Assembly: GCF_016127575.1 (NCBI RefSeq)
Contig: NZ_CP066019.1
Location: 840,001-872,000, forward strand
DNA length: 32,000 nucleotides
Reading direction: 5' to 3'
From: Cupriavidus necator
Lineage (GTDB): Bacteria; Pseudomonadota; Gammaproteobacteria; Burkholderiales; Burkholderiaceae
The translations under genes were made by a program, and so were the position numbers. Under the pieces are notes generated by a model. It did no database searches, had not been told where the DNA came from, and was given only the letters and a program-made list of their open reading frames with translations. This document shows, one piece after another, positions 2,135 to 31,906 of this stretch. Position 1 is the stretch's first letter, and the number at the start of each line of letters is the position of its first letter.

Positions 2135-2216
2135 TCAATTGCATCGGTGCACGCCGCATGCCATGCAGCACACGCCCGCAGCGAAGCGATTTCACCAATC
2201 AGGAGCCCCCACCAGC

Positions 2217-3179
2217 ATGACCAAAGTGAAGAAGATCGCCCTCGAAGAGCATTTCATGACGCCGGGATTTCAGGCCTATTCCAAGGCGTTCACGCAGCAT
2301 ATTGATCCGGCGGTGTTTGCCGAGCTGGGCCGCCGCCTCGCCGATTTCGACGAGGACCGCCTTGCCGAGATGGACCGCGCCGGCATCGACATCACGGTGC
2401 TGTCGCAGACGGGTCCGGGCGTGCAGGGCGAGCGCGATGCCGGCCTCGCCGTGGCGCGGGCGCGCGAGAGCAATGACTTCCTGGCCGCGCAGATCGCGCG
2501 CCACCCCACGCGCTTTGCCGGCTTTGCCGCGCTGCCCATGCACGACCCGGAACAGGCCGCGCGCGAGCTGGAACGCGCCGTGCGCGAGCTTGGCTTCAAG
2601 GGCTCGCTGGTGAACGGCCATACCCACGGGCGCTACTACGACGACCCGGCATACGATGCTTTCTGGGAGCGCATGCAGGCGCTGGACGTGCCCATGTACC
2701 TGCACCCGACCGACGCGCTGGTTCAGCCGCAGGTCCTGGCGGGCCACCCCGAGCTGACCGGCGCGGCGTGGGGCTGGGGCGTCGAGACCGCATCGCATGC
2801 GCTGCGGCTGCTGTTCGGCGGCGTGTTCGACCGCTTCCCGCGCCTGAAGCTCATCCTCGGCCATATGGGCGAGGGCCTGCCGTACCAGCGCTGGCGCTTC
2901 GACAGCCGCTTTGCGGTCTATTCGCACGGCGTCCGGCTGGAGCGCTCACCTTCGGAATACATCGGCACCAATATCGTCATCACCACTTCGGGGGTGTGTT
3001 CGCACGGTGCGCTGGCCGGTGCCATTGCCGAGCTCGGCGCTGAGGCCGTGATGTTCTCGGTCGACTATCCCTACGAATCCACCGAAGTCGCGGCGAAGTT
3101 CATCGAGGACGCGCCGCTCGACGACACCATGCGCGCGCTGGTCTGCCACGGCAACGCGCAACGCCTGCTCAAGCTGTAA
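2217..3179 (+). CDS. Amidohydrolase-2 (ACMSD superfamily) non-oxidative decarboxylase, gamma-resorcylate/2,3-dihydroxybenzoate decarboxylase-like; candidate 3,6-dihydroxypicolinate decarboxylase (PicC-like)
   Basis: The start was moved from 2139 to the ATG at 2217 (MTKVKKIALEEHF), which is preceded by AGGAG at 2201-2205. Motifs IALEEHF, FAALP, LHP and ILGHMGEGLPY match the ortho-hydroxybenzoate decarboxylase group as I recall it. It is the first gene of the 2,5-dihydroxypyridine operon. Confidence 0.8.
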   Translation: MTKVKKIALEEHFMTPGFQAYSKAFTQHIDPAVFAELGRRLADFDEDRLAEMDRAGIDITVLSQTGPGVQGERDAGLAVARARESNDFLAAQIARHPTRFAGFAALPMHDPEQAARELERAVRELGFKGSLVNGHTHGRYYDDPAYDAFWERMQALDVPMYLHPTDALVQPQVLAGHPELTGAAWGWGVETASHALRLLFGGVFDRFPRLKLILGHMGEGLPYQRWRFDSRFAVYSHGVRLERSPSEYIGTNIVITTSGVCSHGALAGAIAELGAEAVMFSVDYPYESTEVAAKFIEDAPLDDTMRALVCHGNAQRLLKL

Positions 3180-3200
3180 CCGTACAACCCGAGGACCCTC

Positions 3201-3953
3201 ATGCAAAAAGTCTTTCGCATCGGCCAGATCGTTCCCAGCTCGAACACGACCATGGAAACCGAGATTCCCGCGATGCTGCTGGCGCGCCAGCAGATCCGTC
3301 CGGAGCGCTTCACCTTCCACTCCAGCCGCATGCGCATGAAGAAGGTGGTCAAGGAAGAGCTGGCCGCCATGGATGCCGAATCCGACCGCTGCGCGGTGGA
3401 ACTTAGCGACGCCCGCGTCGACGTGCTCGGCTACGCCTGCCTGGTCGCCATCATGGCCATGGGCCACGGCTATCACCGCAAGTCGGAGCAGCGCCTGAAG
3501 GTCCACACCATCGAGAATGGCGGCGACGCGCCGGTGATCACCAGCGCCGGTGCGCTGGTGGATGCGCTGCGCGTGATCGGCGCGCGCCGCATCGCCGTGG
3601 TCGCGCCATACTTGAAGCCGTTGACCGAGCTTGTGGTGGATTACATCCGCAACGAAGGCTATGAGGTGGTGGACTACCGTGCGCTGGAGATTCCGGACAA
3701 CCTTGAGGTCGGCCGCCACGATCCGGCGCGGCTGCCGGGCATCGTGTCGCAGATGAACCTGGCGGATGTCGATGCCATCGTGCTGTCGGCCTGCGTGCAG
3801 ATGCCGTCGCTGCCGGCAGTGGCAAAGGTAGAGGCGATGACGGGTAAGCCGGTCATCACCGCGGCCATTGCCACGACCTACGCCATGCTCAAGGCGCTGG
3901 ACCTGGAGCCGGTCGTGCCGGGCGCCGGCGCGCTGCTGTCGGGCGCCTACTGA
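3201..3953 (+). CDS. maiA: Maleate cis-trans isomerase (Asp/Glu racemase superfamily; NicE/PicG/MaiA)
   Basis: 250 aa. N-terminus is RIGQIVPSSNTTMETE. The two catalytic-type Cys contexts are GYACLVAIM and VLSACVQMPS. Sits 21 nt after the upstream gene. Confidence 0.85.
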   Translation: MQKVFRIGQIVPSSNTTMETEIPAMLLARQQIRPERFTFHSSRMRMKKVVKEELAAMDAESDRCAVELSDARVDVLGYACLVAIMAMGHGYHRKSEQRLKVHTIENGGDAPVITSAGALVDALRVIGARRIAVVAPYLKPLTELVVDYIRNEGYEVVDYRALEIPDNLEVGRHDPARLPGIVSQMNLADVDAIVLSACVQMPSLPAVAKVEAMTGKPVITAAIATTYAMLKALDLEPVVPGAGALLSGAY

Positions 3954-3962
3954 GGGCTTGCC

Positions 3963-4790
3963 ATGACCACCTTCCTTTATGGCGGGCATGTCCATGCCAA
4001 CGGCATTCGCCAGCACTTCCTGCGCTATGGTGGAAACGACGGTGAACGCGCCGCGCGCGATCCCGTGATCATCGTGCCGGGCATCACCAGCCCGGCAATC
4101 ACCTGGGGCTTCGTCGGCGAGCGCTTTGGCGCCAGCTTCGATACCTATGTGCTGGATGTGCGCGGGCGTGGCCTGTCGTCGGCCGAGGCCGGGATGGACT
4201 ACAGCCTCGACGCCCAGGCCCGCGACGTGGTGGCCTTTGCCGAGGCACTTGGCCTGCGCCGCCACAGCGTGGTTGGCCATTCGATGGGCGCGCGCATCGG
4301 CGTGCGCGCCGCGGCGGGCCGGCCTGGCGGCCTGGCCAGACTGGTGCTGGTCGACCCGCCGGTGTCGGGGCCCGGGCGCCGCGCGTATCCTGCGCAACTG
4401 CCGTGGTATGTGGATTCCATCCGCCTGTCGCGCCAGGGCACCGACGTGGAAGGCATGCGCCGCTTCTGCCCGACCTGGACCGACGAGCAGCTGCGCCTGC
4501 GCGCCGAATGGCTGCATACCTGCAACGAAGACGCCGTGGTGCGCAGCTTTGAGGATTTCCATCGCGACGACATCCATGCGGATCTGCCCCGGGTCAAGGT
4601 GCCGACGCTGCTGATGACCGCCGGGCGTGGCGACGTGGTGCGCGCTGAAGACGTGGCGGAGATCCGCACGCTGCTGCCGGGGGTGCTGGTCAGCCACGTT
4701 GCCGGGGCCGGCCACATGATCCCGTGGGATGACGAAGCGGGCTTTTACGCGGCGTTTGGGGATTTCCTCGGCGCGCCGCTGACGCAATGA
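3963..4790 (+). CDS. nicD: Alpha/beta-hydrolase, N-formylmaleamate deformylase-like (NicD/PicE)
   Basis: 275 aa with nucleophile elbow GHSMGA and a GAGHMIP histidine region. The function is assigned mainly from its position between the maleate isomerase and the 2,5-DHP dioxygenase. Confidence 0.7.
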   Translation: MTTFLYGGHVHANGIRQHFLRYGGNDGERAARDPVIIVPGITSPAITWGFVGERFGASFDTYVLDVRGRGLSSAEAGMDYSLDAQARDVVAFAEALGLRRHSVVGHSMGARIGVRAAAGRPGGLARLVLVDPPVSGPGRRAYPAQLPWYVDSIRLSRQGTDVEGMRRFCPTWTDEQLRLRAEWLHTCNEDAVVRSFEDFHRDDIHADLPRVKVPTLLMTAGRGDVVRAEDVAEIRTLLPGVLVSHVAGAGHMIPWDDEAGFYAAFGDFLGAPLTQ

Positions 4791-4806
4791 CAAGCAAGGA
4801 GGCGAC

Positions 4807-5862
4807 ATGCCGGTAAGTGACCACCAGATGATCGAGGCCTGGCGCAAGGTGCTGAAGCTGTCGCGGCTGGAGCCGGGGCAGACCGTCACCATCCTGACCA
4901 GCGCCGCGACCCACCCGCAGACGCTCTCCACCGCGCTGATCGCCACGCAGGCGATGGGTGCCATCGTCAACCGGCTCGACCTGCCGCCCGTCAACGGCGA
5001 AAAGGCGCTGAGCCGCGACGCGCTGGCCTACCTGGGCACGACCCCGCTCACGGGCAACCGGGCCGCGATTGCCGCGCTCAGGGAAAGCGACCTGGTGCTG
5101 GACCTGATGACGCTGCTGTTCTCCCCCGAACAGCACGACATCCTGAAGGGCGGCACCAAAATCCTGCTGGCCGCCGAGCCGCCCGAGGTGCTGACGCGCC
5201 TGGTGCCTTGCGAGGCCGACCGCGAGCGCGTCAAGGCCGCCTCCGAGCGGCTGGCCCGCGCCAAGGAGATGCATGTGGTGTCGCCGGCCGGCACCGACCT
5301 GCGCTGCCCGCTGGGCGAGTTCCCGGCCATCAGCGAGTATGGCTTTGTCGACGAGCCCGGGCGCTGGGACCACTGGCCCAGCGGCTTCGCGCTGACCTGG
5401 CCCAACGAGGGCGCTGCCAATGGCACCATCGTGCTGGAGCGCGGCGACATCCTGCTGCCGCAGAAGACCTACGTCACCGAGCCGGTCATGCTGACGGTGG
5501 AGGGCGGCTTTGCCACGCGCATCGAAGGCGGCCTGCACGCCGAACTGCTGAGCGAGTACATGGCCTCCTTCAACGACCCGCAGGCCTATGCCATCTCGCA
5601 TATCGGCTGGGGGCTGCAGCCGCGCGCGCACTGGTCCACGCTGGGGCTGTACGATCGCGAGGCCACCATCGGCATGGACGCGCGCGCGTTCGAGGGCAAC
5701 TTCCTGTTCTCGCTCGGCCCCAATAACGAAGCCGGCGGCAGCCGCACCACGGCCTGCCATATCGATATTCCCGTGCGCAACTGCACCGTGCGCCTGGACG
5801 GCGTGGATGTGGTGAGCCGCGGCAAGGTCATGGACGGGTTCCGCTACCCGGAGGAGAAGTAG
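4807..5862 (+). CDS. nicX: 2,5-dihydroxypyridine 5,6-dioxygenase (NicX/PicD)
   Basis: 351 aa. Long collinear resemblance to P. putida NicX as I remember it: VLKLSRL, LLAAEPPEVL, DEPGRWDHWPSGF, ISHIGWGLQPRA, ARAFEGNFLFS and CHIDIP (metal ligands). Confidence 0.9.
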   Translation: MPVSDHQMIEAWRKVLKLSRLEPGQTVTILTSAATHPQTLSTALIATQAMGAIVNRLDLPPVNGEKALSRDALAYLGTTPLTGNRAAIAALRESDLVLDLMTLLFSPEQHDILKGGTKILLAAEPPEVLTRLVPCEADRERVKAASERLARAKEMHVVSPAGTDLRCPLGEFPAISEYGFVDEPGRWDHWPSGFALTWPNEGAANGTIVLERGDILLPQKTYVTEPVMLTVEGGFATRIEGGLHAELLSEYMASFNDPQAYAISHIGWGLQPRAHWSTLGLYDREATIGMDARAFEGNFLFSLGPNNEAGGSRTTACHIDIPVRNCTVRLDGVDVVSRGKVMDGFRYPEEK

Positions 5863-5864
5863 CC

Positions 5865-6491
5865 ATGCACAAGGAGATCGGCGCGTACCAGCGCCAGGGC
5901 TTCGGCAACGACCTGGAACTGGCGGGCCCGTTCGGGCTGCTGCTGGTCGATTTCGTCAACGGCTTTGCCGACCCGGAGGTGTTCGGCGGCGGCAATATCC
6001 GCGAGGCCATCGCCAACACCGTGCCGCTGCTGGCCGTGGCACGGCGCGAAGGCTGGGCGATTGCGCACAGCCGCATCGTCTTTGCGGACGATGGTTCGGA
6101 CCACAACATCTTTTCCATGAAGGTGCCGAACATGCTGTCGCTGAAGGAGCGCGAACGCAACAGCGCCATCGTCGAAGAACTGGCGCCGCGGGTGGGCGAG
6201 CTGGTGGTGCGCAAGACCGTGCCGTCGGCGTTCTTCGGTACGTCGCTGGCCGCCTGGCTGACGCAGCGCGGCGTGCGCACGCTGGTGGTGGCCGGCGCGG
6301 TGACCAGCGGCTGCGTGCGCGCCAGCGTGGTGGACGCCATGCAGTACGGCTTGCGGCCGCTGGTGCTGTCGGATTGCGTCGGCGACCGCGCGCTTGGACC
6401 GCACCAGGCCAACCTGTTCGACATGGAGCAGAAATATGCGACGGTCACCACGCGCGCGGAAGGGCTGGCGGCCATCGGGGTGCGCGAATGA
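5865..6491 (+). CDS. nicF: Maleamate amidohydrolase (isochorismatase family; NicF/PicF)
   Basis: 208 aa. Isochorismatase D-K-C triad contexts are LLLVDFVNGF, VVRKTVPSAFFGT and VAGAVTSGCVRAS. Starts 2 nt after the nicX stop. Confidence 0.8.
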   Translation: MHKEIGAYQRQGFGNDLELAGPFGLLLVDFVNGFADPEVFGGGNIREAIANTVPLLAVARREGWAIAHSRIVFADDGSDHNIFSMKVPNMLSLKERERNSAIVEELAPRVGELVVRKTVPSAFFGTSLAAWLTQRGVRTLVVAGAVTSGCVRASVVDAMQYGLRPLVLSDCVGDRALGPHQANLFDMEQKYATVTTRAEGLAAIGVRE

Positions 6492-6524
6492 GCGCTTGCA
6501 TGAATCATCGGGACGGATAAAACA

Positions 6525-8921
6525 ATGACATCGTCGATGGAACCGGATCATTCGGAAGGAGGGTGCGGCCAGGGCGTGGGAGCCCGGGTGGCGCGCAAGG
6601 AAGACGCCAGGCACCTGCACGGCAAGGGCCGCTTTGTCGCGGACATCGCCATGCCGGACCTGCAGGAGGTGGCCTTCCTGCGCAGCCCCGTGGCGCATGC
6701 CAGGCTGTTGTCCGTGACCAAGCCCGCGCGCCACGCGCAAGCGGTGATCGTGCGCGAGGACATGGCGGCGGCGCGGGACATCGTCGCGGATTCGGCGTTC
6801 CCGTCCTACCAGCCGTCGGCTCAGGCGCCGCTGGCCAGCGGCAAGGTGCGCTTTGTCGGCGAGCCCGTTGCCATGGCCTTTGCCCCCACGCGCGCCGAAG
6901 CCGAGGACATCGCCGAGCAGGTGGTGGCCGAGTTCGACGAGCTGCCCGCGCTGACCGACGTGGCGCAGGCCCGCCAGCTCGCTGGCGAGGTGCGCGTGCA
7001 CGAACACTGGCGCGATAACACCTTCCTGACGCTGAATATCGACAAGAACTTCGAGGCGCGCCAGCGCGAGGCCTCCGTCGTCGTTCACCGCAAGGTCAAC
7101 CTGGCGCGCCAGTGCATGGTGCCGATGGAGGGCAAGGCGGTGCTGGCCTACTGGGACCACCAGTTCGACCAGCTGGTGGTGTACAGCGCCACCCAGGTGC
7201 CGCATATGATCCGGACCATCCTGAGCCATTGCCTGGACCTGGACCAGGCGCGCGTGCGCGTGATCTCGCCGGACGTTGGCGGCGCCTTTGGCTACAAATG
7301 CGTGCTGCAGCAGGAAGAGCTCTGTATCGCCTGGCTGGCGCTGACCTACAAGCGGCCGTTCCGCTTTATCGAGGATCGGCGCGAGCACCTGACCGCCGGC
7401 GCCAACTCGCGCGAGCATCACTACGAGCTTACCGCCTATGCCGACAAGCGCGGCCGCCTGCTGGCGCTGGACGCGAACATTGCCATCGACGGCGGTGCCT
7501 ATTCGGTCTGGCCATTCACCATCGGGCTGGAGCCGGGGCAGGCGATCGGCAACCTGCCCGGTCCCTATGCCTTCGACGGATACCGCTGCGAGACTACCTG
7601 CGTGGCCACCAACAAGCCGGGTTTCGTGCCGTATCGCGGTGTGGCCCGGACCGGCGTCTGTTTCGCCATGGAGCTGATGATCGACGCGATCGCGCGCGAG
7701 GTGGGACGCGAGCCGTGGGAAGTGCGCGTTGAAAACCTGGTGCCGCCGCAGTCCATGCCTTACGTCAACGTGACCAACAAGCACTTCGACGGCGGCGACT
7801 ACCCGGCCAGCGTGCGCCAGGCGATGGAGATGATCGACCTGCCCGCGATCCGCGCGCGGCAGCAGGCGGGTCCGCAGGGCAGCCGCTATGTCGGCGTGGG
7901 CTTTGGCACCTACACCGAGCAGTCGGCGCACGGCACTTCCGTGTTCGCGGCCTGGGGCACGCCGGTGATCCCCGGCTTCGACTCGGCGACGGTGCGCATC
8001 ACGCCGGACGGCGGGCTGGAGGTGCGCGTCGGCGTGCACTCGCACGGGCAGGGCATGGAGACTACCTTCGCGCAGATTGCCCACGAGATCCTGGGCATCG
8101 ACATCGGACGGATCAAGCTGGTGCACGGCGATACCGGACTCACGCCGTTCTCCACCGGTACCTATGCCTCGCGCTCGCTGGTGATGTCGGGCGGCGCGGT
8201 GTCGCGGGCGTGCAAGGCGCTGCTGCCGCGGCTGCAGAAGATTGGCGCGCATATGCTGGGGCAGCGGGTGGAGGCGGTAACGTTTGCAGCCGGCGCGGTT
8301 CGTGCGGGCGATGCCGACGCCATCGACATCGGCCGTATTGCCGACGCCTGGTACATCAATCCCCACCTGCTGCCGCCCGATGTGGATGCGCAAGGGCTGG
8401 AGGTCACCATGGGCTTCAAGCCCGCGGTCGACACCGGCAGCTTCACCTACGCCACGCATGCGGTCGCGGTGGAAGTCGACACCGATTCCGGCCATGTCGA
8501 GATCCTGGACTACGTGGTGGTGGAGGACTGCGGCACCATGATCAATCCGATGGTGGTCGAGGGCCAGACCTATGGCGGCGTGGCACAGGGCATCGGCACC
8601 GCGATGTTCGAAGAGATGCGCTATGACGGCAACGGGCAGCCGCTGGCTTCCACGCTGGCGGACTACATGCTGCCCGGGCCGACCGAGATTCCGTCGATCC
8701 GCATCCATCATTTCGAGACGCCGTCGCCGCATACGGAATTCGGCGCCAAGGGCATGGGCGAGGGCGGTGCCATCGCACCGCCGGCGGCGATCTTCAATGC
8801 GGTGAACGACGCCTTGCGCGGCTTCGGCGTCGAACTTCAGGAGACGCCGCTGACCCCGAGAAAGATCCTTGAAGCGCTGGATGCGGCAGTGGCCGGCGCA
8901 CAGAGCAAGAAGGCAGCCTGA
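6525..8921 (+). CDS. Molybdopterin-binding large subunit of a xanthine dehydrogenase/CoxL-family hydroxylase (N-heterocycle hydroxylase)
   Basis: 798 aa. Motifs seen are RKEDARHLHGKGRFVAD, GGAFGYK and a C-terminal GAKGMGEGGAIAPPAAI (catalytic Glu region). There is no CxxCH haem motif. The start could alternatively be the ATG at 6537. Confidence 0.85.
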   Translation: MTSSMEPDHSEGGCGQGVGARVARKEDARHLHGKGRFVADIAMPDLQEVAFLRSPVAHARLLSVTKPARHAQAVIVREDMAAARDIVADSAFPSYQPSAQAPLASGKVRFVGEPVAMAFAPTRAEAEDIAEQVVAEFDELPALTDVAQARQLAGEVRVHEHWRDNTFLTLNIDKNFEARQREASVVVHRKVNLARQCMVPMEGKAVLAYWDHQFDQLVVYSATQVPHMIRTILSHCLDLDQARVRVISPDVGGAFGYKCVLQQEELCIAWLALTYKRPFRFIEDRREHLTAGANSREHHYELTAYADKRGRLLALDANIAIDGGAYSVWPFTIGLEPGQAIGNLPGPYAFDGYRCETTCVATNKPGFVPYRGVARTGVCFAMELMIDAIAREVGREPWEVRVENLVPPQSMPYVNVTNKHFDGGDYPASVRQAMEMIDLPAIRARQQAGPQGSRYVGVGFGTYTEQSAHGTSVFAAWGTPVIPGFDSATVRITPDGGLEVRVGVHSHGQGMETTFAQIAHEILGIDIGRIKLVHGDTGLTPFSTGTYASRSLVMSGGAVSRACKALLPRLQKIGAHMLGQRVEAVTFAAGAVRAGDADAIDIGRIADAWYINPHLLPPDVDAQGLEVTMGFKPAVDTGSFTYATHAVAVEVDTDSGHVEILDYVVVEDCGTMINPMVVEGQTYGGVAQGIGTAMFEEMRYDGNGQPLASTLADYMLPGPTEIPSIRIHHFETPSPHTEFGAKGMGEGGAIAPPAAIFNAVNDALRGFGVELQETPLTPRKILEALDAAVAGAQSKKAA

Positions 8922-8924
8922 CCG

Positions 8925-9752
8925 ATGAAAGCCGTCGCCTTTTCCTATCATGCGCCCGGCTCGCTGCCGGACGCGCTGGCCCGCCTTGGCGCGGGCACCG
9001 ACGTGGCCAAGACCATGGGCGGAGGCCAGTCGCTCGGCCCGATGCTGAACCTGCGGCTGACCCGTCCTGACACGGTGGTCGATGTGTCGGGGCTGGCCGA
9101 ACTGCGGCAAGTCGCGTCCACCCCCGATGGCATCCGCATCGGCGCCTGCGTGACCCATGCGCAGATCGAGGACGGCGTGTTCGCGCCGCTGCAGGGCACC
9201 ATGCTGCAGGCCGTGGCGGGCGGCATTGCCTACCGCGCGATCCGCAACCGCGGCACCGTTGGCGGCAGCCTGGCCCATGCGGACCCGGCCGCGGACTGGG
9301 TCGTGGTGATGACCGCGCTGGGTGCGCGCATCGAGATTGCATCAGGCACCGGCACGCGCGAGGTGCCCATGGAAGCCTTCATGATCGGCGCCTACACCAC
9401 GGTGCTGGCCGATGGCGAGCTGATCGCCGCCGTGCGCGTGCCGCACGCCACCGCGCACAGCCGCTGGGGCTACCAGAAGCTGTGCCGCAAGACCGGCGAG
9501 TTTGCCGAAGCCAGCTGCGCCGCGTACTTCGATGCCGGCTGCCGCTTCGCACGCATCGTGCTCGGCGCGCTGGACGGACCGCCGGTGGTGCTGCCCGGCC
9601 TCACGCGCGCGGTCGCCGCGCAAGGCGCCGCGGCGCTCACCGCCGGTGCCGTGGACGAAGCGGTGGCGCAGGCCGCGCCCGGCAAGGACGCCATCGACCG
9701 CAAGCTTTACCGTACCGTCGTGATGCGCTGCGTCACGCAAATGCTGAACTGA
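8925..9752 (+). CDS. FAD-binding medium subunit (CoxM/XdhB-like) of the Mo hydroxylase
   Basis: 275 aa with a GGGQSLGPMLNLRL FAD-binding motif. Starts 3 nt after the large-subunit stop. Confidence 0.85.
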   Translation: MKAVAFSYHAPGSLPDALARLGAGTDVAKTMGGGQSLGPMLNLRLTRPDTVVDVSGLAELRQVASTPDGIRIGACVTHAQIEDGVFAPLQGTMLQAVAGGIAYRAIRNRGTVGGSLAHADPAADWVVVMTALGARIEIASGTGTREVPMEAFMIGAYTTVLADGELIAAVRVPHATAHSRWGYQKLCRKTGEFAEASCAAYFDAGCRFARIVLGALDGPPVVLPGLTRAVAAQGAAALTAGAVDEAVAQAAPGKDAIDRKLYRTVVMRCVTQMLN

Positions 9753-9761
9753 GGAGCGCCC

Positions 9762-10931
9762 GTGCAGACCATCGAATTCAGTGTCAACGGCCGCCGGGTT
9801 TCCGGCGCGTGCGCGGACCGGACGCACCTGGGCGACTTCCTGCGCGACACGCACCGGCTGACCGGCACCCACCTCGGCTGCGAGCACGGCGTGTGCGGCG
9901 CCTGCACCGTGCTGCTCGACGACAAGCCGGTGCGTTCGTGCATCACCTTCGCGGCTGCCTGCCAGGGCGCCGACATCGTCACCGTCGAAGGCTACCAGGA
10001 CGATGCCGTGATGGCCGGCCTGCGCGCGGCGTTCAACCAGCACCACGCGCTGCAGTGCGGCTTCTGCACGCCGGGCATGCTGGCGACCGCGCGCGACATC
10101 GTGCTGCGCCTGCCCGACGCCGACGACGCCACCATCCGTCACGAGCTGTCGGGCAACCTGTGTCGCTGCACCGGCTATATGGGAATCGTCGCCGCCATCC
10201 GCTCGGTGCTGGACGCACGCCGCGCAACAGCCGGCGTGATTGCGCGGCACGCCGCGGGCGCGGCGCCGGCCGAAGCGCCGTTCACCGGTTTTGCCGTTGC
10301 GGACGAAGCGCTCGGCACGCTGCCTCACCTGGCCGCGGGCACCGGCGCCGAGGCGGAACGGTCAGCCGACCGCAAGGGCTGGTCGCGCATCGAAGGCGGC
10401 TTCACCGTCCCCTATACGCTCGACGCGGTATGGGCCTTCATGGCCGACCTGCCGGCCGTGGCAGGCTGCCTGCCGGGTGCGGTGCTCACTGAAATGGAGG
10501 GGGAGAAGGTCAAGGGCCATATCGCCATCAAGTTCGGCCCGATGTCCGCCAGGTTCGAAGGCGCCGCGCGCCTGCAGCGCGACGACGCGAACAAGCGCGG
10601 CGTGCTGAAGGGGGCGGGGCAGGACTCGCTCAGCAATTCCAAGGCCGCGGGCGACATCGCCTACCAGCTGAAGGCGCTTGCCGCGCACGAGACCGAGGTT
10701 GCGGTCGACCTGCAGTATTCGCTGCAGGGGCCGCTGGCGCAGTTCTCGCGGTCGGGGCTGGTGCGCGATTTCGTGCGGCGCATGATTGCGGATTTCGGCA
10801 AGTCGGTGGCGCGCCGGATGGACCCGACGCTGAGCGATGCCGAACGCAACCAGGCGGTACGCCTCAATCCCGCGGCGATGTTCTTCGGCGTGCTGTGGGA
10901 GCGGGTCAAACGGTGGTTCGGCGCCCGCTGA
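9762..10931 (+). CDS. [2Fe-2S] small subunit (CoxS-like) fused to a C-terminal CoxG-like SRPBCC domain
   Basis: GTG start preceded by GAGGAG. The N-terminal ~160 aa carry GCEHGVCGACTV and CGFCTPGM...CRCTGY cluster motifs. An Ala-rich linker follows, then a CoxG-type domain (TVPYTLDAVWAFMADL...KFGPMSARFEG...LQGPLAQFSRSGLVRDF) and an amphipathic tail AAMFFGVLWERVKRWF. Confidence 0.8.
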   Translation: MQTIEFSVNGRRVSGACADRTHLGDFLRDTHRLTGTHLGCEHGVCGACTVLLDDKPVRSCITFAAACQGADIVTVEGYQDDAVMAGLRAAFNQHHALQCGFCTPGMLATARDIVLRLPDADDATIRHELSGNLCRCTGYMGIVAAIRSVLDARRATAGVIARHAAGAAPAEAPFTGFAVADEALGTLPHLAAGTGAEAERSADRKGWSRIEGGFTVPYTLDAVWAFMADLPAVAGCLPGAVLTEMEGEKVKGHIAIKFGPMSARFEGAARLQRDDANKRGVLKGAGQDSLSNSKAAGDIAYQLKALAAHETEVAVDLQYSLQGPLAQFSRSGLVRDFVRRMIADFGKSVARRMDPTLSDAERNQAVRLNPAAMFFGVLWERVKRWFGAR

Positions 10932-10966
10932 ACCCGCCCTCCGGGCTGTCGCAACCCTTGCCCGCG

Positions 10967-11563
10967 TCAGCCCGGATGCACTACAACCAGTAGTGCGGTG
11001 GCAGTGGTCTTGCCGCCATTGGAGATCGCATGTGCGACATCGGCCGCATAGCGCGCGGTCTCGCCGTGCCTCAGCTTCTTTTCATCGGCACCCGCGCGCA
11101 CTGTCATCGATCCGCTCAGCACAGACAGGTGTTCCTGGGTGCCGGCCTCGTGTGGCTCGGAGGCCAGCACGCCGCCGGCCTGGATGGTCAGCTCATACCA
11201 CTCGAAGCGCCCGGCCAGGTCGATCGGGCCCAGGATGCGCAGGTCGCAGCGGGTATCAGGGCTTTTCAGCGACGGGATCGCGTGCGGCTGGACCACGGTG
11301 ATGCCGCCGGCGGGGCGCTCAGCGGCGCCTCCGGCGAGGAAGTCCGTCAGGTTCACCCCAAGCGCATTGGCCAGGCGCCACAGCACCGCCACGGTGGGGT
11401 TGGCCAGGTTGCGTTCGATCTGCGACAGCATCGACTTGGAAACCCCGGCACGGCGTGACAGTTCATCGAGCGACAGCCGTTGCTGCTGGCGCAGCGCCTG
11501 CAGCGCCATGCCGACGGCGGGCGGGCCATCGGCCTGCGGGGTCTGGGCGAGGGCTTGCGTCAT
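10967..11563 (-). CDS. XRE-family HTH plus cupin-domain transcriptional regulator
   Basis: 198 aa with HTH_3 motif [28 protein letters not shown] and a C-terminal cupin-like beta region. Divergent from kbl. No clear SD, so the start is uncertain (an alternative ATG lies at 11509). Confidence 0.75.
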
Positions 11564-24439: not shown

Positions 24440-24605
24440 CTAGTGTCCTGTTCCGCAGATAGCTTGCCATGAAATCGCCCAGTTGGCCGCCATGCGTCGC
24501 TGCTCGTCGTTGCCATAGCTACGGCTATGGCGCCTCCTCGCGCCTAGCCTGACGACCAACTGGACGATTTCACGTTGGCAAGCTATCTGCGGAACAGGAC
24601 ACTAG
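24440..24605. repeat. 166-bp MITE-like palindromic element with perfect 30-bp terminal inverted repeats
   Basis: CTAGTGTCCTGTTCCGCAGATAGCTTGCCA (24440-24469) is the exact reverse complement of 24576-24605. The match extends by 8 bp (TGAAATCG/CGATTTCA) across a 3-nt indel. Internal arms CCAGTTGG/CCAACTGG and GCCATAGC/GCTATGGC also pair. No ORF of its own. Confidence 0.75.
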
Positions 24606-25468
24606 CCCAGCGCGACCGCGAACAGCGCCGCAATCAGCGGCCGCTCCTTGCGCACCTCCAGGCAGCACAGCGAGTAATCGATCGACAGCAGCGGCTCGTC
24701 GACCGGCACCACCTGCAGGCCCGGCAGCGGGATGCATTCGATCTGCGTGACGAAGCTGATGCCCATGCCATTGGCCACTGCATGCAGGATGGCCTCGCGG
24801 CTGTTGATCTCCATCACGCAGTTCAGCGCCACGCCATGCTGTGCGCACGCGCGTTCAACCCGGAGCCGGGTCTTCGAGCCCGGCTCGCGCAGGATCACGG
24901 CTTCGCCGGCGACCTCCTGCACCGTGATCGAAGCGCGCGCGGCCAGCGGATGGCCGGCCGGCATCACGGCAACGATGCGCTCTCTCCGATACGGCGCGAT
25001 ATGCAGGCCATCGACCGGATCGGGCTCGGCCAGGATGCCGACGTCGATATCGAAATCCTGCAGGCCGCGCAGCACCGAGGCTTCCGAGCCGATGGTGACC
25101 GTCAGTTCCAGCGAAGCATGGGTGGAACGGAAACTACGCGCCAGCCCCAGCGCGATCGGCGGTGACACCGCGCCCACGCGCACCAGCCCGGTCTTGAGCT
25201 TGTGCGCGCTCTGCAGGAACTGCATGGCCTCTGCTTCCTGCCCGAACAAGCCCTGGGTGATGGCGTAGAGCCGCTCGCCGGTGTCGGTCAGGCGCACGGT
25301 GCGGCCTGCGCGCAGGAACAGCTCCACGCCGAAGCGCGTCTCCAGCGCCTTGACCTGGTCGGTCACGGTCGGCTGCCCGATATGCAGGTATTGCGCCGCG
25401 GCAGTAAAGCCGCCCGTCCGGGCGACCGCATGGAAGCAGCGGATCGACTTGTAGTACTGGTGGAACAT
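24602..25468 (-). CDS. LysR-family transcriptional regulator
   Basis: The start was trimmed to MFHQYYKSIRCFHAVARTGGFTAAAQYLHIGQPTVTDQVKALE (LysR HTH), giving 288 aa. Divergent from the ADH gene. Its TAG stop lies inside the terminal CTAG of the palindromic element. Confidence 0.85.
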   Translation of the reverse strand: MFHQYYKSIRCFHAVARTGGFTAAAQYLHIGQPTVTDQVKALETRFGVELFLRAGRTVRLTDTGERLYAITQGLFGQEAEAMQFLQSAHKLKTGLVRVGAVSPPIALGLARSFRSTHASLELTVTIGSEASVLRGLQDFDIDVGILAEPDPVDGLHIAPYRRERIVAVMPAGHPLAARASITVQEVAGEAVILREPGSKTRLRVERACAQHGVALNCVMEINSREAILHAVANGMGISFVTQIECIPLPGLQVVPVDEPLLSIDYSLCCLEVRKERPLIAALFAVALG

Positions 25469-25627
25469 GGGGTCTCGATGGGAGCTGGCCGCCGTTCTGC
25501 GCGGCGTGTGCGGCGAGTCTCCCACAGACGCGTGCCGTTGCGTACAGGGTTTCCCCGAGGCCGGCAGCGTGCCGGCGATCCATCGGTTTTGGCGCACCTC
25601 GCCGTCAAAGATGCGATTGGACCGGGG

Positions 25628-25645
25628 GTTTGGCGTCTCCCAAAC
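25628..25645. promoter_or_regulatory. Inverted repeat GTTTGG-N6-CCAAAC; candidate LysR-type binding site
   Basis: Read directly. It lies 68 nt upstream of the ADH ATG in the LysR/ADH divergent region. It is only loosely T-N11-A-like. Confidence 0.3.
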
Positions 25646-25712
25646 TTCAGCCACCAGGAAACGCGGCTCAAGCCGCCGCCCAGGCTACCCAGAAAAGAAG
25701 TGAGGAGACCCC

Positions 25713-26804
25713 ATGAACCATGCCTACCACAACCCCGTGTCGATCCATTGCGGGGCTGGCAGCCTTGACCGGCTCCCGGCCCTGCTGCACGGCCGGCGCG
25801 TCGTCGTCGTGACCTTTCCCGAAGCGCGTGCGCTGGGACTGGTGGCGCGGCTTGAAGCCCTGCTGGGCGCAGACCTTGCCGGGCTGATCGAAGACGTGCA
25901 GCCGAACCCGGATGTCGCCCAGTTGTCCGGCCTGTACAACCGCTTCTGGGAAGACGCCGACGCCTGCGACGCCATCGTTGCGGTCGGTGGCGGCAGCGCG
26001 ATCGATACCGCCAAGGCGTTGATGGTAGGGACCAGGTCGGGCCGGTTCGATTCGCTGATCAGCCTGCTGGCGACCGGCAAGGCGTTCACGCCGGCGCAGG
26101 TCAAGCCGCTGATCGCGGTGCCGACGACTGCCGGCACCGGCAGCGAAGTGACGCCCTGGGCCACCATCTGGGACGCCGCGAACCAGAAGAAGTACTCGCT
26201 TCACCTGCAGGCAACCTGGCCCGAAGCGGCCATCGTGGATGCGGAGCTGATGATGTCGGTGCCGCGGGACACCACGATCTCCACCGGGCTCGATGCCCTG
26301 TCCCACGCGCTGGAATCGATCTGGAACGTCAACGCCAACCCGGTTTCCGACACCTTCGCGATTTCGGCGGTGGAGGACATCTTCGACACCTTGCCGGAAC
26401 TGGTGCGCAACCTGGACGACATTGGCCTGCGTGAGCGCATGGCGCTGGCCGCCCTCAAGGCCGGACTGGCGTTCTCCAATACCAAGACGGCACTTGCGCA
26501 CTCCATCTCCTACGAAATGACGCTGCGCCATGGCCTGCCGCACGGCATCGCGTGCTCGTTCACGCTGCCGATGGTGCTTGAAAAGGCGTGGGCACGCCGG
26601 CCCGACCGCGACCGCACGCTGCAGCGGCTGTTCGGGCCGGTGCTGGGCGACGGGCAGCAGCGGCTGCGCGCCTTCCTGCAGGACCTGGGCGTGAAGACCG
26701 AGTTTGCCGACTACGGCGTCTCCGACGACGAGGCCGGCGCCATGATCGCGCGTGCGCTGGACGGCGCCCGGGGCAAGAACTTCATCGGCGCTGTGCCGGC
26801 CTAG
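25713..26804 (+). CDS. Iron-containing (group III) alcohol dehydrogenase
   Basis: 363 aa with GAGGAGA upstream. Motifs are AVGGGSAIDTAK plus metal-ligand contexts DALSHALES and HSISYEMTLRHGLPHG. Confidence 0.85.
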   Translation: MNHAYHNPVSIHCGAGSLDRLPALLHGRRVVVVTFPEARALGLVARLEALLGADLAGLIEDVQPNPDVAQLSGLYNRFWEDADACDAIVAVGGGSAIDTAKALMVGTRSGRFDSLISLLATGKAFTPAQVKPLIAVPTTAGTGSEVTPWATIWDAANQKKYSLHLQATWPEAAIVDAELMMSVPRDTTISTGLDALSHALESIWNVNANPVSDTFAISAVEDIFDTLPELVRNLDDIGLRERMALAALKAGLAFSNTKTALAHSISYEMTLRHGLPHGIACSFTLPMVLEKAWARRPDRDRTLQRLFGPVLGDGQQRLRAFLQDLGVKTEFADYGVSDDEAGAMIARALDGARGKNFIGAVPA

Positions 26805-26883
26805 TAGCACGACCCCCGGCCGACGGGTGCAGCCGGCCAACACGAGCCCGCAATACGGGCCGACAATACAAGAGGAGACAAAA

Positions 26884-28188
26884 ATGGAAACTGCCGATCG
26901 CATCCAGGCAGGGGCGTTCGTCGCTCCGGCCGAGCATTCGTTCCGGCGCGCCCAGTGGCGCATGCTGCTGGCCGCGATGTTCTGCTACTTCTTCTTCTAC
27001 ACGGGGCGGCAGACCTTTGGCTTCGCCATTCCCGGCATCCAGCAGGAATTCGGGTTTTCCAAGGAAGCGCTGGGCTGGGCCTCCACCTGCCTGCTGTGGT
27101 GCTACGCCATCGGGCAGGCCATCAACGGCAACCTGGGTGACAAGTTCGGCGGCCGCCGCGTGATGACCGCCGGCGCGATCCTGTCGTGCGCGGCCAACTG
27201 GGTGGTCAGCTTCGCCGTCGGCTTCAAGAGCCTGGCGATTCCCTGGGGCATCAACGGCTACTTCCAGGCCCTTGGCTGGGCGCCCGGCAGCCGGCTGCTG
27301 TCGAACTGGTGGGGCGCCGAAGAGCGCGGCAAAGTCTACGGCTTCTACGTGTTCGCGGCCGGCTGCGCCTCGGTGCTGTCGTTCGTCACCTCGATCGTGG
27401 TCGTGAATATCCTGCACCTGGACTGGCGCTGGATCTTCCGCCTGCCGGTGCTGCTGATGCTGGTGGGCGGCATCACCTTCTTCCTGATCGTGCGCGAGCG
27501 GCCGGAAGACCTTGGCTTCAAGTCGCCCGATACCGGCGTTGCCAAGGCCGAGGGTGCGGAGAAGGCTACCGCAGTCGAGACCGATGCCGGCGAAAGCTCC
27601 TGGTCGCGCTACAAGGCCGTGCTGCGCAACCCGCGGCTTCTGATCGCGGGCCTGTCGATCGGTTTCCAGAATGCCGCGCGCTATGGCCTGATCGTCTGGG
27701 TGCCGGTCCACTTCCTGGGCAAGAACTGGAAGAGCGCCGAGACCCTGATCGACCCGGCCTGGATCTCGGTGGCGCTGCCGGTGGGCATGGCCTTCGGCGC
27801 GCTGTCCAACGGCTGGATTTCCGACCGCCTGTTCGGCTCCAGCCGCAGCAAGGCCATCATGCTCTACATGGTGCTGGGTGCGATTGCCTCGATGATCATG
27901 TACCAGCTGCCCACGGGCATGGGCGCGATCGTCGCGCTGTTCCTTGCCGGCTTCTTCGTGTACGGCCCCGCCTCGTCCTTCTGGGCGCTGTGCCCGGACC
28001 TGGTCGGCGCCAAGCGGGCCGGCACCGCCACCGGTATCCTGAACTTCTTCTCGTACCTGCTCGCAGGCCTGGGCGAACCCCTGATCGGCCGCATCCTGGA
28101 CCAGTCCGGCAATACCTCGCTGGTGTTCCCGATCGTGGCAACCAGCTGCATCATCAGCGCCGTGATCGCGGCCTTCATCCGCCGCTGA
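26884..28188 (+). CDS. MFS transporter of the organophosphate:Pi antiporter (OPA; GlpT/UhpT-like) family
   Basis: The start was trimmed to METADRIQ with GAGGAGA upstream, giving 434 aa. Blocks align with E. coli GlpT as I recall it: YTGRQTFGFAIP, GYFQALGWAPGSRLLSNWWGAEERG, ARYGLIVWVPVHFL and GFFVYGPASSFWALCPDLVGAKRAGTATG. Confidence 0.8.
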   Translation: METADRIQAGAFVAPAEHSFRRAQWRMLLAAMFCYFFFYTGRQTFGFAIPGIQQEFGFSKEALGWASTCLLWCYAIGQAINGNLGDKFGGRRVMTAGAILSCAANWVVSFAVGFKSLAIPWGINGYFQALGWAPGSRLLSNWWGAEERGKVYGFYVFAAGCASVLSFVTSIVVVNILHLDWRWIFRLPVLLMLVGGITFFLIVRERPEDLGFKSPDTGVAKAEGAEKATAVETDAGESSWSRYKAVLRNPRLLIAGLSIGFQNAARYGLIVWVPVHFLGKNWKSAETLIDPAWISVALPVGMAFGALSNGWISDRLFGSSRSKAIMLYMVLGAIASMIMYQLPTGMGAIVALFLAGFFVYGPASSFWALCPDLVGAKRAGTATGILNFFSYLLAGLGEPLIGRILDQSGNTSLVFPIVATSCIISAVIAAFIRR

Positions 28189-28273
28189 GCGCGCCGGGCC
28201 GGCGCCTTGCCGGCCCGCCCGCGACGGCTGCATCTCCTTCCACACACTGCTCAAGACCCGAGAGGGCAAGCTC

Positions 28274-29719
28274 ATGACCGCATTGCAAGCCATTGCCGAA
28301 ATCCGCCACGAAGCGCTGCGCATCGCCGGCGAGAAGATCTACCGCGAAGACGTGATCGAGGTGACCTATCCGTACACCGGCGAAGTCATCGCCACCGTGC
28401 CGAAGGCCACGCTCGACGAAGTGCGCCGCGCCTACCGCATCGCGCGCGACTACCAGCCCACGCTGACGCGCTATGAACGCTACAAGATCCTGATGCGCGC
28501 CGGCGAGATCATCGCCTCGCGCCTGGACGAGATCTCGCGCACCATCACGCTGGAATCCGGCCTGTGCCGCAAGGATTCGCTGTACGAGGTGGGCCGCGCC
28601 TCCGACGTGCTGCTGTTTGCCGCCAACCAGGCGCTGGTCGACGACGGCCAGGTGTTCTCGTGCGACCTGACCCACCACGGCAAGAGCCGCAAGGTCTATA
28701 CGCTGCGCGAGCCGCTGCTGGGCGTGATCACCGCGATCACGCCGTTCAACCACCCGTTGAACCAGGTGATCCACAAGGTGGCGCCGGCGGTGGCCACCAA
28801 CAACCGCATGGTGCTCAAGCCCAGCGAGAAGACGCCGCTGGCGGCCTACCTGCTGGCCGATATCCTGTATGAGGCCGGGCTGCCGCCGCAGATGCTGTCG
28901 GTCATCACCGGCGACCCGCGCGAGATCGCCGACGAGATGCTGACGCACCCGGACGTGGACCTGGTGACCTTCACCGGCGGCGTGCCGATCGGCAAGTACA
29001 TCGCCGCCACGGCCACCTACAAGCGCCAGGTGCTGGAGCTGGGCGGCAATGACCCGATCATCGTGATGGAAGACGCCGACCTGGAAGAGGCCGCCACGCT
29101 GGCCGCCAGCGGCTCGTACAAGAACTCCGGGCAGCGTTGCACGGCGATCAAGCGCATGCTGGTGCATGAGTCGGTGGCGGACCGCTTTGTCGACCTGCTG
29201 GTGGCGAAGACCGAAGCGCTCAACTATGGCGACCCCATGGACCCGAAGGTGGACATGGGCACGGTCATCGACGAAGCCGCGGCGATCCAGTTCGAGGCGG
29301 TGGTCAATGAAGCGATTGCCGCCGGGGCCACGCTGCGCTACGGCAATATCCGCCGCGGTGCGCTGTACTCGCCGACGGTGCTCGATCATGTCGATCCCGA
29401 AATGACCGTGGCCAGGCATGAGACCTTCGGGCCGGTGTCGCCGGTGATCCGCTTCAGGGACATTGAAGATGCGATCCGCATCTCGAATGGCACTGCGTAC
29501 GGGCTGTCGTCGTCGGTCTGCACCAACCGGCTCGACTACATCACGCGCTTCGTGCGGGAGCTGAAGGTCGGCAGCGTCAATGTGCGCGAGGTGCCGGGCT
29601 ATCGCCTGGAGCTGACGCCGTTCGGCGGCATCAAGGATTCCGGACTGGGCTACAAGGAAGGCGTGCTGGAGGCGATGAGGAGCTTTACCAATACCAAGAC
29701 GTATTCGCTGCCGTGGTAA
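28274..29719 (+). CDS. NAD(P)-dependent aldehyde dehydrogenase
   Basis: 481 aa with catalytic contexts LELGGNDP (Glu) and GQRCTAIKR (Cys), and PFGGIKDSGLG near the C-terminus. Confidence 0.85.
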   Translation: MTALQAIAEIRHEALRIAGEKIYREDVIEVTYPYTGEVIATVPKATLDEVRRAYRIARDYQPTLTRYERYKILMRAGEIIASRLDEISRTITLESGLCRKDSLYEVGRASDVLLFAANQALVDDGQVFSCDLTHHGKSRKVYTLREPLLGVITAITPFNHPLNQVIHKVAPAVATNNRMVLKPSEKTPLAAYLLADILYEAGLPPQMLSVITGDPREIADEMLTHPDVDLVTFTGGVPIGKYIAATATYKRQVLELGGNDPIIVMEDADLEEAATLAASGSYKNSGQRCTAIKRMLVHESVADRFVDLLVAKTEALNYGDPMDPKVDMGTVIDEAAAIQFEAVVNEAIAAGATLRYGNIRRGALYSPTVLDHVDPEMTVARHETFGPVSPVIRFRDIEDAIRISNGTAYGLSSSVCTNRLDYITRFVRELKVGSVNVREVPGYRLELTPFGGIKDSGLGYKEGVLEAMRSFTNTKTYSLPW

Positions 29720-29736: not shown

Positions 29737-29793
29737 GCCGGGGGCGGCAGCGCAGTTCGTCCCTGCGCTGCCTGCCCCGGCGCGTAGTTTCTG
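29737..29793 (+). terminator. Rho-independent-type terminator after the aldehyde dehydrogenase gene
   Basis: Stem GCCGGGG..GGCAGCGCAG / CTGCGCTGCC..CCCCGGC (17 of 19 positions paired) with loop TTCGTCC, followed by GCGTAGTTTCTG. Confidence 0.55.
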
Positions 29794-29851
29794 CTGGTGT
29801 CTCCGGTAGCCGGGGCCAGGTGGGTTCTCCGGCACCACCACCCCGGATTTG

Positions 29852-29903
29852 GCCGCCTGAGCAGGCGGCTGCTTTGTTTTCAGGCGGCGCTGTCCTGCGC
29901 CGC
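29852..29903 (+). promoter_or_regulatory. Two adjacent hairpins in the acs leader, with a U-tract and a duplicated CAGGCGGC arm (possible attenuator)
   Basis: GCCGCCTG (29852-29859) can pair with CAGGCGGC at 29862-29869, which is followed by TGCTTTGTTTT, or with the identical CAGGCGGC at 29881-29888. A third stem is GCGGCGC (29884-29890) / GCGCCGC (29897-29903). The structure ends 20 nt before the acs ATG. Confidence 0.35.

Positions 29904-29923: not shown

Positions 29924-31906
<1,983 letters not shown>

Follow-up and report, generated by a model that had tools for sequence, protein, structure and literature searches.

Gene clusters in which phpC stands together with phnY and phnA and phnW is missing were described for the breakdown of 2-hydroxyethylphosphonate (HEP) by Piazza et al. 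(Protein Sci, September 2026; PMC13576164), and Cupriavidus taiwanensis, which keeps a separate cluster for 2-aminoethylphosphonate (AEP), is named among the organisms in the tables of that work. Here we analyzed a stretch of 32,000 nucleotides (the window, G000:C2:840001-872000) from a 7.42-Mb genome of three contigs with a G+C content of about 67%, for which the nearest named relatives were Cupriavidus species in every search. The element under study is a three-gene operon of the window, which encodes a PhpC-type iron-containing alcohol dehydrogenase, an OPA-like carrier of the major facilitator superfamily (MFS) and an aldehyde dehydrogenase, and which lies beside a divergent LysR-type regulator gene. 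With a probability of about 0.82, the operon is the upper half of a locus dedicated to HEP catabolism, in which HEP would be converted through phosphonoacetaldehyde and phosphonoacetate to acetate and inorganic phosphate (Pi). This pathway is supported by curated family models, conserved residues, synteny and the published biochemistry of a homologue. An earlier note on the same DNA had offered the route from HEP to phosphonoacetate as its first hypothesis and had added that no described module of this composition was known to it. The hypothesis agreed with our results, since both dehydrogenases passed the corresponding family models (TIGR03405 and TIGR03250), phnA was found adjacent and PhpC of the same family oxidizes HEP; the module itself is of a kind already known from the clusters of Piazza et al.

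Recombinant PhpC of Paraburkholderia fungorum was shown to oxidize HEP with NAD+ at a kcat/KM of about 270 M-1 s-1 with Zn as the preferred metal, to react appreciably with none of the other substrates tested, and to free Pi when coupled to phosphonoacetaldehyde hydrolase (PMC13576164). The equilibrium of the reaction favors HEP, so that a downstream enzyme is needed to pull it, and the non-biosynthetic phpC homologues (pf00465) were mostly clustered with phnX or with phnY-phnA, without phnW (PMC13576164). A catabolic role for phpC genes unlinked to pepM had already been suggested by Lockwood et al. 2022 (PMC9381506). The locus in the window shared with the clusters of Piazza et al. the enzyme family (pf00465/TIGR03405), the predicted course from HEP to phosphonoacetaldehyde and on through PhnY and PhnA, the absence of phnW from the cluster, and the presence of an AEP cluster elsewhere in the genome. 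It differed from them in that phnA stood apart from the operon, in a convergent unit that has a regulator of its own, and from the Paraburkholderia polaris locus, which has an MHS-type symporter, in that the transporter was an OPA-like MFS carrier. Compared with PhnWYA of Sinorhizobium meliloti 1021, PhnY and PhnA would carry out the same two steps, whereas entry would be via an alcohol dehydrogenase acting on HEP instead of the PhnW transaminase acting on AEP.

The full locus was arranged as the regulator gene LysR1, the divergent phpC-MFS-phnY operon, acs on the same strand, and then, in convergent orientation, a permease gene and phnA, with a second regulator gene, LysR2, divergent from phnA. 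The regulator and the operon consisted of the following genes:

24602-25468, minus strand: LysR-type regulator gene (LysR1), 288 aa, divergent from the three-gene operon, with the Pfam domains HTH_1 and LysR_substrate
25713-26804, plus strand: phpC-type iron-containing alcohol dehydrogenase gene, 363 aa, with a GAGGAG ribosome-binding site upstream
26884-28188, plus strand: OPA-like MFS carrier gene, 434 aa, with a GAGGAG ribosome-binding site upstream
28274-29719, plus strand: aldehyde dehydrogenase gene (phnY), 481 aa

These coordinates agreed with the arrangement reported before, a divergent LysR gene and three plus-strand genes separated by 79 and 85 nt. The spacer between LysR1 and the alcohol dehydrogenase gene was 244 nt long. 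The true ATG of LysR1 was placed at 25468, with the protein start MFHQYYKSIRCF, and the open reading frame of 350 aa reaching up to 25654 was taken as an upstream extension.

The identity of the aldehyde dehydrogenase was well defined by profile comparison. It scored 879.9 bits against TIGR03250 (phosphonoacetaldehyde dehydrogenase PhnY; cut-off 635.65), and its best solved relative was PhnY of S. meliloti (4I3T-4I3X) with 607 bits, the others, including GapN-type enzymes, reaching about 308 bits or less. In the alignment with 4I3T, the motifs NHPLN, ELGGNDP, GQRCTA and PGYR(I/L)E were identical; they cover the catalytic Cys and Glu and the Arg and His of phosphonate binding, the latter residues as reportedly identified in PhnY by Agarwal et al. 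2014. The scores on the models of succinate-semialdehyde dehydrogenase (SSADH), archaeal GapN-type enzymes, lactaldehyde dehydrogenase and betaine-aldehyde dehydrogenase were far below their cut-offs, with 284 bits against a cut-off of 780 for the archaeal GapN model, the sole GapN-type model in the list. In the comparison with PhnY, GapN and SSADH that the earlier note had proposed, the protein thus passed the PhnY model and failed the other two. A second PhnY, encoded in the AEP cluster of the genome, was 71% identical. By its sequence, the enzyme is phosphonoacetaldehyde dehydrogenase, and the gene is phnY.

The alcohol dehydrogenase scored 641.3 bits against NCBIfam TIGR03405 (cut-off 423.7), a family originally named phosphonate metabolism-associated iron-containing alcohol dehydrogenase and at present named PsrA by NCBI, while the next-best family reached 183 bits. 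On the models of lactaldehyde reductase, 4-hydroxybutyrate dehydrogenase and sulfoacetaldehyde reductase it reached only 145-183 bits against cut-offs of 500-700; in the comparison with PhpC, FucO and Gbd that had likewise been proposed, it therefore passed only the PhpC-type model and stayed far under the cut-offs of the lactaldehyde reductase and 4-hydroxybutyrate dehydrogenase models. A genome search found the TIGR03405 member in a single copy. In P. fungorum PhpC, the metal ligands are Asp191, His195, His260 and His274, and HEP is contacted by Lys157, Thr256, Tyr264 and Arg349 (PMC13576164). Seven of these eight residues were found in the present enzyme as K160, D194, H198, T259, H263, Y267 and H277 with a constant offset of +3, the mapping to P. 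fungorum numbering having gone through Paraburkholderia homologues of about 61-63% identity. For the eighth, Arg349, the counterpart reached through the same homologues was an invariant arginine, Arg353, one position away and with an uncertain offset. The enzyme would thus be a NAD-dependent HEP dehydrogenase, an activity shown for one member of the family, and its metal is probably Zn. PbfF, a NAD-dependent racemase of 1-hydroxy-2-aminoethylphosphonate (PMC12366243), was also considered as its identity and was ruled out, since PbfF belongs to pf02826 and not to the iron-containing alcohol dehydrogenase family.

The gene expected for the last step lay just outside the window. A phnA gene was located at G000:C2:873877-875097 on the minus strand, about 1.9 kb past the window end and 4 kb downstream of phnY, convergent with the operon; its product scored 630.8 bits on TIGR02335 (cut-off 407.55) and 635 bits against P. 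fluorescens PhnA (1EI6). The statement of the earlier note that no phnW, phnX or phnA gene is present here was therefore right within the window, but for phnA its absence was an effect of the window edge. In the same way, a PhnA-type hydrolase assumed to lie elsewhere did turn up in the genome search with TIGR02335, which gave two PhnA matches above the cut-off, but one of them is adjacent to the operon. Just downstream of phnA, at G000:C2:872109-873788 on the minus strand, was a gene for a permease related to Na/Pi-cotransporter II (TIGR00704, 250 bits against 210). This permease was paired with phnA in nine loci of the same genus, and three loci of more distant relation (L052, L054 and L060) had a weaker homologue of it in the neighborhood of phnA/phnY. 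Export of Pi, uptake of Pi and uptake of phosphonoacetate are all candidates for its role. Upstream of phnA and divergent from it was LysR2, a GcvA-type LysR gene whose product shared 61% identity with a regulator of a Burkholderia plasmid, encoded there divergently from phnA-MFS.

Other phosphonate genes were present in the genome. The separate AEP cluster (C2:2121516-2130477) contained the second phnY next to another phnA, which was 63% identical, and a phnW above the cut-off of TIGR03301 was located 5 kb from this pair. The C-P lyase gene phnJ was at C2:1368381-1369196. With the phpC locus, the AEP cluster and C-P lyase, the genome has three phosphonate routes. The genome search found no phosphonatase PhnX and no phosphoenolpyruvate mutase above the cut-off; the latter makes phosphonate synthesis, and with it a biosynthetic role of the alcohol dehydrogenase, unlikely.

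From these assignments the following course may be proposed. HEP would enter the cell via the OPA-like MFS carrier, most likely against internal Pi, and would be oxidized with NAD+ to phosphonoacetaldehyde by the PhpC-type enzyme. Because the PhpC equilibrium favors HEP, a pull is needed, and PhnY would provide it by the irreversible oxidation of the aldehyde to phosphonoacetate. In the second, convergent unit, which comprises phnA and the Na/Pi-type permease under its own GcvA-type LysR regulator, PhnA would split phosphonoacetate into acetate and Pi. The Pi freed in this way may be exchanged for the next HEP by antiport, or the permease may deal with it, and the acetate would be activated by Acs, whose gene stands between the two units, with a further copy elsewhere in the genome.

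The conservation of the locus was surveyed with a 14-member family alignment, by which 80 loci were fetched from species-representative genomes; 51 of them encode a homologue at least 50% identical to the alcohol dehydrogenase. The 10-kb flanks were fetched and searched by tblastn with the proteins of the locus and with PhnX, PhnD, PhnE and the MHS carrier from two loci. Within 10 kb, phnX, or phnY and/or phnA, was present in 42 of the 51 loci, and phnW in two. The carrier gene followed phpC directly in 22 loci, while loci without it used other transporters, for example the MHS-type symporter in Paraburkholderia, or phnDCE. Eighteen of these 22 loci, from Pseudomonas and Acinetobacter, were of the phnX type without phnA within 10 kb, the fully annotated one (L050) having the order phnDCE-phpC-MFS-LysR-phnX. 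The other four comprised two loci of the phnY type (Cupriavidus, and Variovorax, the latter also with phnA) and two on incomplete contigs. The synteny of the carrier with phpC thus holds for both downstream routes, through phnX or through phnY/phnA. On an Ensifer plasmid, psrA-phnA-phnY-MFS formed one unit beside LysR, and the carrier encoded there was 72% identical. Among the Cupriavidus species representatives, 14 of 78 had a phpC gene. The layout from LysR1 through phpC-MFS-phnY and permease-phnA to LysR2 was kept, at 85-98% identity, in eight of the 13 same-genus relatives fetched, and a ninth locus (L113) departed from it only by missing the permease.

The best solved relative of the carrier was the glycerol-3-phosphate:Pi antiporter GlpT of E. 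coli (1PW4; E 2.6e-30), with which it shares the MFS fold, although the score was low (109 bits). In the alignment, the counterparts of the two substrate-binding arginines of GlpT, R45 and R269, were arginine, while K80 was replaced by Gln and H165 by Gly; these residue numbers are those of GlpT, with an offset of +1 to the chain index. The score on TIGR00881 was 194.6 bits against 407.75, on the GlpT models 135 against 633-748, on UhpT 76 against 497, and on PgtP 101 against 750. The middle gene had been called clearly GlpT/UhpT-like, and both motifs named for this were found in the translation, so that the OPA-like character held; the protein nevertheless passed no named OPA model. No close paralogue of it was found in this genome.

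Carriers of this kind have been connected with phosphonates in other bacteria. Reportedly, Kulakova and colleagues described in 2001 a phnR-phnA-phnB locus of Pseudomonas fluorescens 23F, and we take the layout in which a LysR gene precedes phnA and an MFS gene on Burkholderia and Caballeronia plasmids to be the same. The present locus is like that of 23F in the LysR gene divergent from phnA and in a GlpT-like carrier tied to phosphonate entry, but here the Na/Pi-type permease follows phnA and the GlpT-like carrier, only 54-56% identical to the phnA-linked carriers, goes with phpC and phnY. In AepP of P. putida BIRD-1, which supports phosphate-insensitive use of phosphonate, the phosphate-binding residues are kept and those of the glycerol side are not (Murphy et al. 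2021; PMC8316502). The present carrier resembles AepP as a GlpT relative with the phosphate-binding residues, located beside a LysR gene and a plausible phosphonoacetaldehyde-making enzyme, whereas AepP has a FAD oxidoreductase as neighbor and AEP as substrate. In the supplementary proteomics table of that study, aepP lies between the gene of this FAD-dependent oxidoreductase and a LysR gene (PPUBIRD1_3128-3130), much as the order in other pseudomonads is phpC-MFS-LysR, and the oxidoreductase was up on AEP, in three of 12 intensity columns, the same three as AepP (PMC8316502). It may be an AEP oxidase of the PbfD type. Since carriers linked to phpC are found mostly in loci whose route does not pass through phosphonoacetate, HEP would be the most economical common substrate and exchange for Pi the most economical mode, and the carrier probably imports HEP in this way.

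Several observations weigh against the assignment of the operon to HEP catabolism. The assignments for this organism are predictions from sequence. The family TIGR03405 now bears the name of PsrA of B. cenocepacia, which has been linked genetically to the detoxification of lipid-peroxidation aldehydes (PMC9113575), and no phosphonate gene turned up in the DNA fetched for seven of the 51 loci, three of which are on contigs ending before 10 kb; for these two reasons, membership in TIGR03405 alone does not fix the substrate. The carrier scored below the cut-off of every OPA equivalog and subfamily model. A homologue 70% identical to it adjoins an M20 hydrolase gene, without phpC, on a Phyllobacterium plasmid, and the carriers of 54-56% identity on the Burkholderia and Caballeronia plasmids follow phnA alone, behind a LysR gene, so that the carriers of this group may differ in specificity. 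A Cupriavidus protein 93% identical to the carrier is labeled "2-phosphonopropionate transporter" by one source. In addition, a sigma-70 consensus scan of the spacer between LysR1 and phpC found no promoter.

The label of the 93%-identical homologue and the carriers that follow phnA alone would fit an unlikely variant of the pathway, in which the same enzymes act but the MFS protein imports phosphonoacetate or 2-phosphonopropionate in the manner of PhnB, or AEP in the manner of AepP, and HEP enters otherwise. This variant also gains from P. putida BIRD-1, in which growth on AEP depends, on genetic evidence, on the OPA-type carrier AepP (PMC8316502), and from the many Pseudomonas phpC loci that also have phnDCE and thus a second importer. 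Import of phosphonoacetate, however, is hard to reconcile with the 18 of 22 phpC-linked carriers that occur in phnX-type loci, where it is not an intermediate, and import of AEP with the rarity of phnW near phpC. The position of AepP beside a FAD oxidoreductase and not beside phpC suggests that each carrier matches the substrate of the neighboring phosphonoacetaldehyde-forming enzyme. The name PsrA, for its part, raises the question whether the alcohol dehydrogenase is a general PsrA/YqhD-like reductase of stress aldehydes, placed here incidentally or buffering toxic phosphonoacetaldehyde by reduction. Both PsrA of B. cenocepacia K56-2 (Naguib et al. 2022; PMC9113575) and the present enzyme are members of this NCBIfam family, a psrA mutant accumulates peroxidation products, psrA, unlike the gene studied here, is unlinked to phosphonate genes (PMC9113575, PMC13576164), and the PhpC equilibrium favors reduction (PMC13576164). 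The enzymatic activity of PsrA itself, whose proposed role is the detoxification of peroxidation aldehydes, was, however, never assayed (PMC13576164). The tight, conserved synteny that 42 of the 51 loci show with phnY/phnA or phnX, the appreciable reaction of the P. fungorum enzyme with HEP only (PMC13576164) and the conservation of the phosphonate-clamping Lys, Thr and Tyr in the present enzyme make such a reductase very improbable. The other option of the earlier note, in which an imported glycerol-phosphate-like ester would be oxidized in two steps, first to an aldehyde phosphate and from there to phosphoglycerate, could appeal to GlpT as the nearest solved relative of the carrier, to the PgtP subfamily as its best NCBIfam model and to GapN-type enzymes as the next-best solved relatives of the aldehyde dehydrogenase. 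It was disfavored by the latter enzyme, which passed the PhnY equivalog, scored about half as high on GapN structures as on PhnY and lay far below the cut-offs of the GapN, SSADH and lactaldehyde models, by the carrier, which lacks K80 and H165 of GlpT and fails the GlpT, UhpT and PgtP cut-offs, and by the adjacent phnA, so that we give it hardly any credence. Oxidation of imported HEP to phosphonoacetate is the reading that we retain.

Two further groups of homologues were noted. The seven loci without a phosphonate gene include three from Paraburkholderia (L056-L058, around 10001-11083), in which a LysR gene stands by a phpC homologue and an MHS-type carrier gene, with no phnA, phnY or phnX within 10 kb. 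The HEP-contact residues are all kept in their phpC homologues, which bears on the choice between the names PsrA and PhpC; these loci possibly represent the situation of PsrA. On plasmid p_2 of Phyllobacterium sp. 628 (L118, 3551-7281), the gene of the 70%-identical carrier is accompanied by one for an M20/M25/M40 metallo-hydrolase and by a LysR gene in divergent orientation, which may be a different phosphonate or phosphonopeptide module with the same kind of carrier.

The regulator LysR1 had TIGR03339, the LysR subfamily of aminoethylphosphonate catabolism, as its best model with 265.7 bits, under the cut-off of 341.1, the next LysR model reaching 143 bits; judged by these scores it is a relative and not a member of this subfamily. 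Its divergent position was kept in 11 of the 13 same-genus loci with 80-96% identity and was inverted in one (L107); it was kept in Variovorax too, with a protein 73% identical. LysR1 probably activates phpC-MFS-phnY in response to HEP or an intermediate of the pathway, and LysR2 probably responds to phosphonoacetate. The spacer between LysR1 and phpC contained the following elements, given without strand:

25578-25590: conserved block ATCCATCGGTTTT, once in the window
25611-25622: conserved block ATGCGATTGGAC, once in the window
25628-25645: the dyad GTTTGG-N6-CCAAAC of the earlier note, which contains T-N11-A

The dyad was thus present where it had been seen, but it is not good evidence of an operator. 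Perfect 6+6 inverted repeats with 3-9 nt between the arms turned up in 59% of 244-nt stretches of the window and, after shuffling of the spacer, in 43% of the shuffled sequences; the spacer itself has three of them. In Cupriavidus neocaledonicus, the closest named relative with proteins 92% identical, the dyad reads CTTTGG...CCACAC and its symmetry is broken, and in the Variovorax spacer it is absent. It was therefore dropped as a LysR operator, its frequency being at chance level and its symmetry lost in relatives. The blocks ATCCATCGGTTTT and ATGCGATTGGAC, on the other hand, were identical in the window, in C. neocaledonicus and in Variovorax sp. W6, while the surrounding spacer diverges, and are better candidates for regulator sites than the dyad. 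Inspected by eye, the spacer showed neither a Pho-box-like repeat nor a sigma-54 motif with the correct spacing, which is weak negative evidence.

At its stop end, the LysR1 gene is overlapped by the right arm (24576-24605) of a perfect inverted repeat, the left arm of which is at 24440-24469. The arms are 30 nt long and 106 nt apart, and the element resembles a miniature inverted-repeat transposable element.

Downstream of phnY, a spacer of 204 nt with three terminator-like hairpins preceded acs:

29764-29784 and 29884-29903: two further terminator-like hairpins after phnY
29850-29871, plus strand: the clearest terminator-like hairpin, a nine-pair stem followed by the T-rich CTTTGTTTTC
29924-31906, plus strand: acs, acetate--CoA ligase gene, 660 aa (TIGR02188, 988 bits)

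Over 1911 nt, the DNA of the acs gene was 99.5% identical to that of a second acs at G000:C1:2827551-2829458, and the match ended within the coding region on both sides. Since this near-identity is confined to the coding region, it points to a recent gene conversion or duplication. None of the same-genus relatives examined had a full acs copy at this position, between phnY and the permease gene. Four of them contained fragments, corresponding to residues 498-660, 152-240, 511-588, or at least 1-203 up to a contig end, and three more contained only short DNA remnants of the 3' end of acs. The gene was probably once part of the locus in the genus and decayed repeatedly. As an integral member of the cluster it was rejected, being intact here and present only as fragments in relatives. 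The earlier suggestion that the adjacent acs would activate the acetate released by PhnA holds insofar as it could do so, but the gene is behind terminator-like hairpins and is not conserved in the cluster; it may aid acetate activation here and would be dispensable.

Elsewhere in the window (2139-10931, plus strand), a run of genes encoding an amidohydrolase, an arylmalonate-decarboxylase-like protein, an alpha/beta hydrolase, an isochorismatase-family protein and a three-subunit molybdenum hydroxylase, the small subunit of which is fused to CoxG, resembled a catabolic cluster for N-heteroaromatic compounds and has no relation to the phpC operon.

HEP has been reported to make up a substantial share of the organophosphorus found in nature, marine dissolved organic matter included, and before 2026 the sole documented route of its breakdown was the non-specific C-P lyase. 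The locus would add a dedicated HEP route in a hydrogen-oxidizing, Cupriavidus-type soil bacterium, where the route is divided between two units under separate regulation. Beyond this, there is about an even chance that the carriers following phpC form a distinct clade of HEP:Pi antiporters, in a phosphonate-specialized OPA-like branch beside the PhnB- and AepP-type carriers, and that the Cupriavidus locus works as a two-regulator relay. If so, a 1:1 exchange of HEP for the Pi supplied by PhnA or PhnX would let the cells burn HEP as carbon regardless of their phosphate status, and in the Cupriavidus relay the first LysR regulator would sense HEP or the aldehyde and the second the product, phosphonoacetate.

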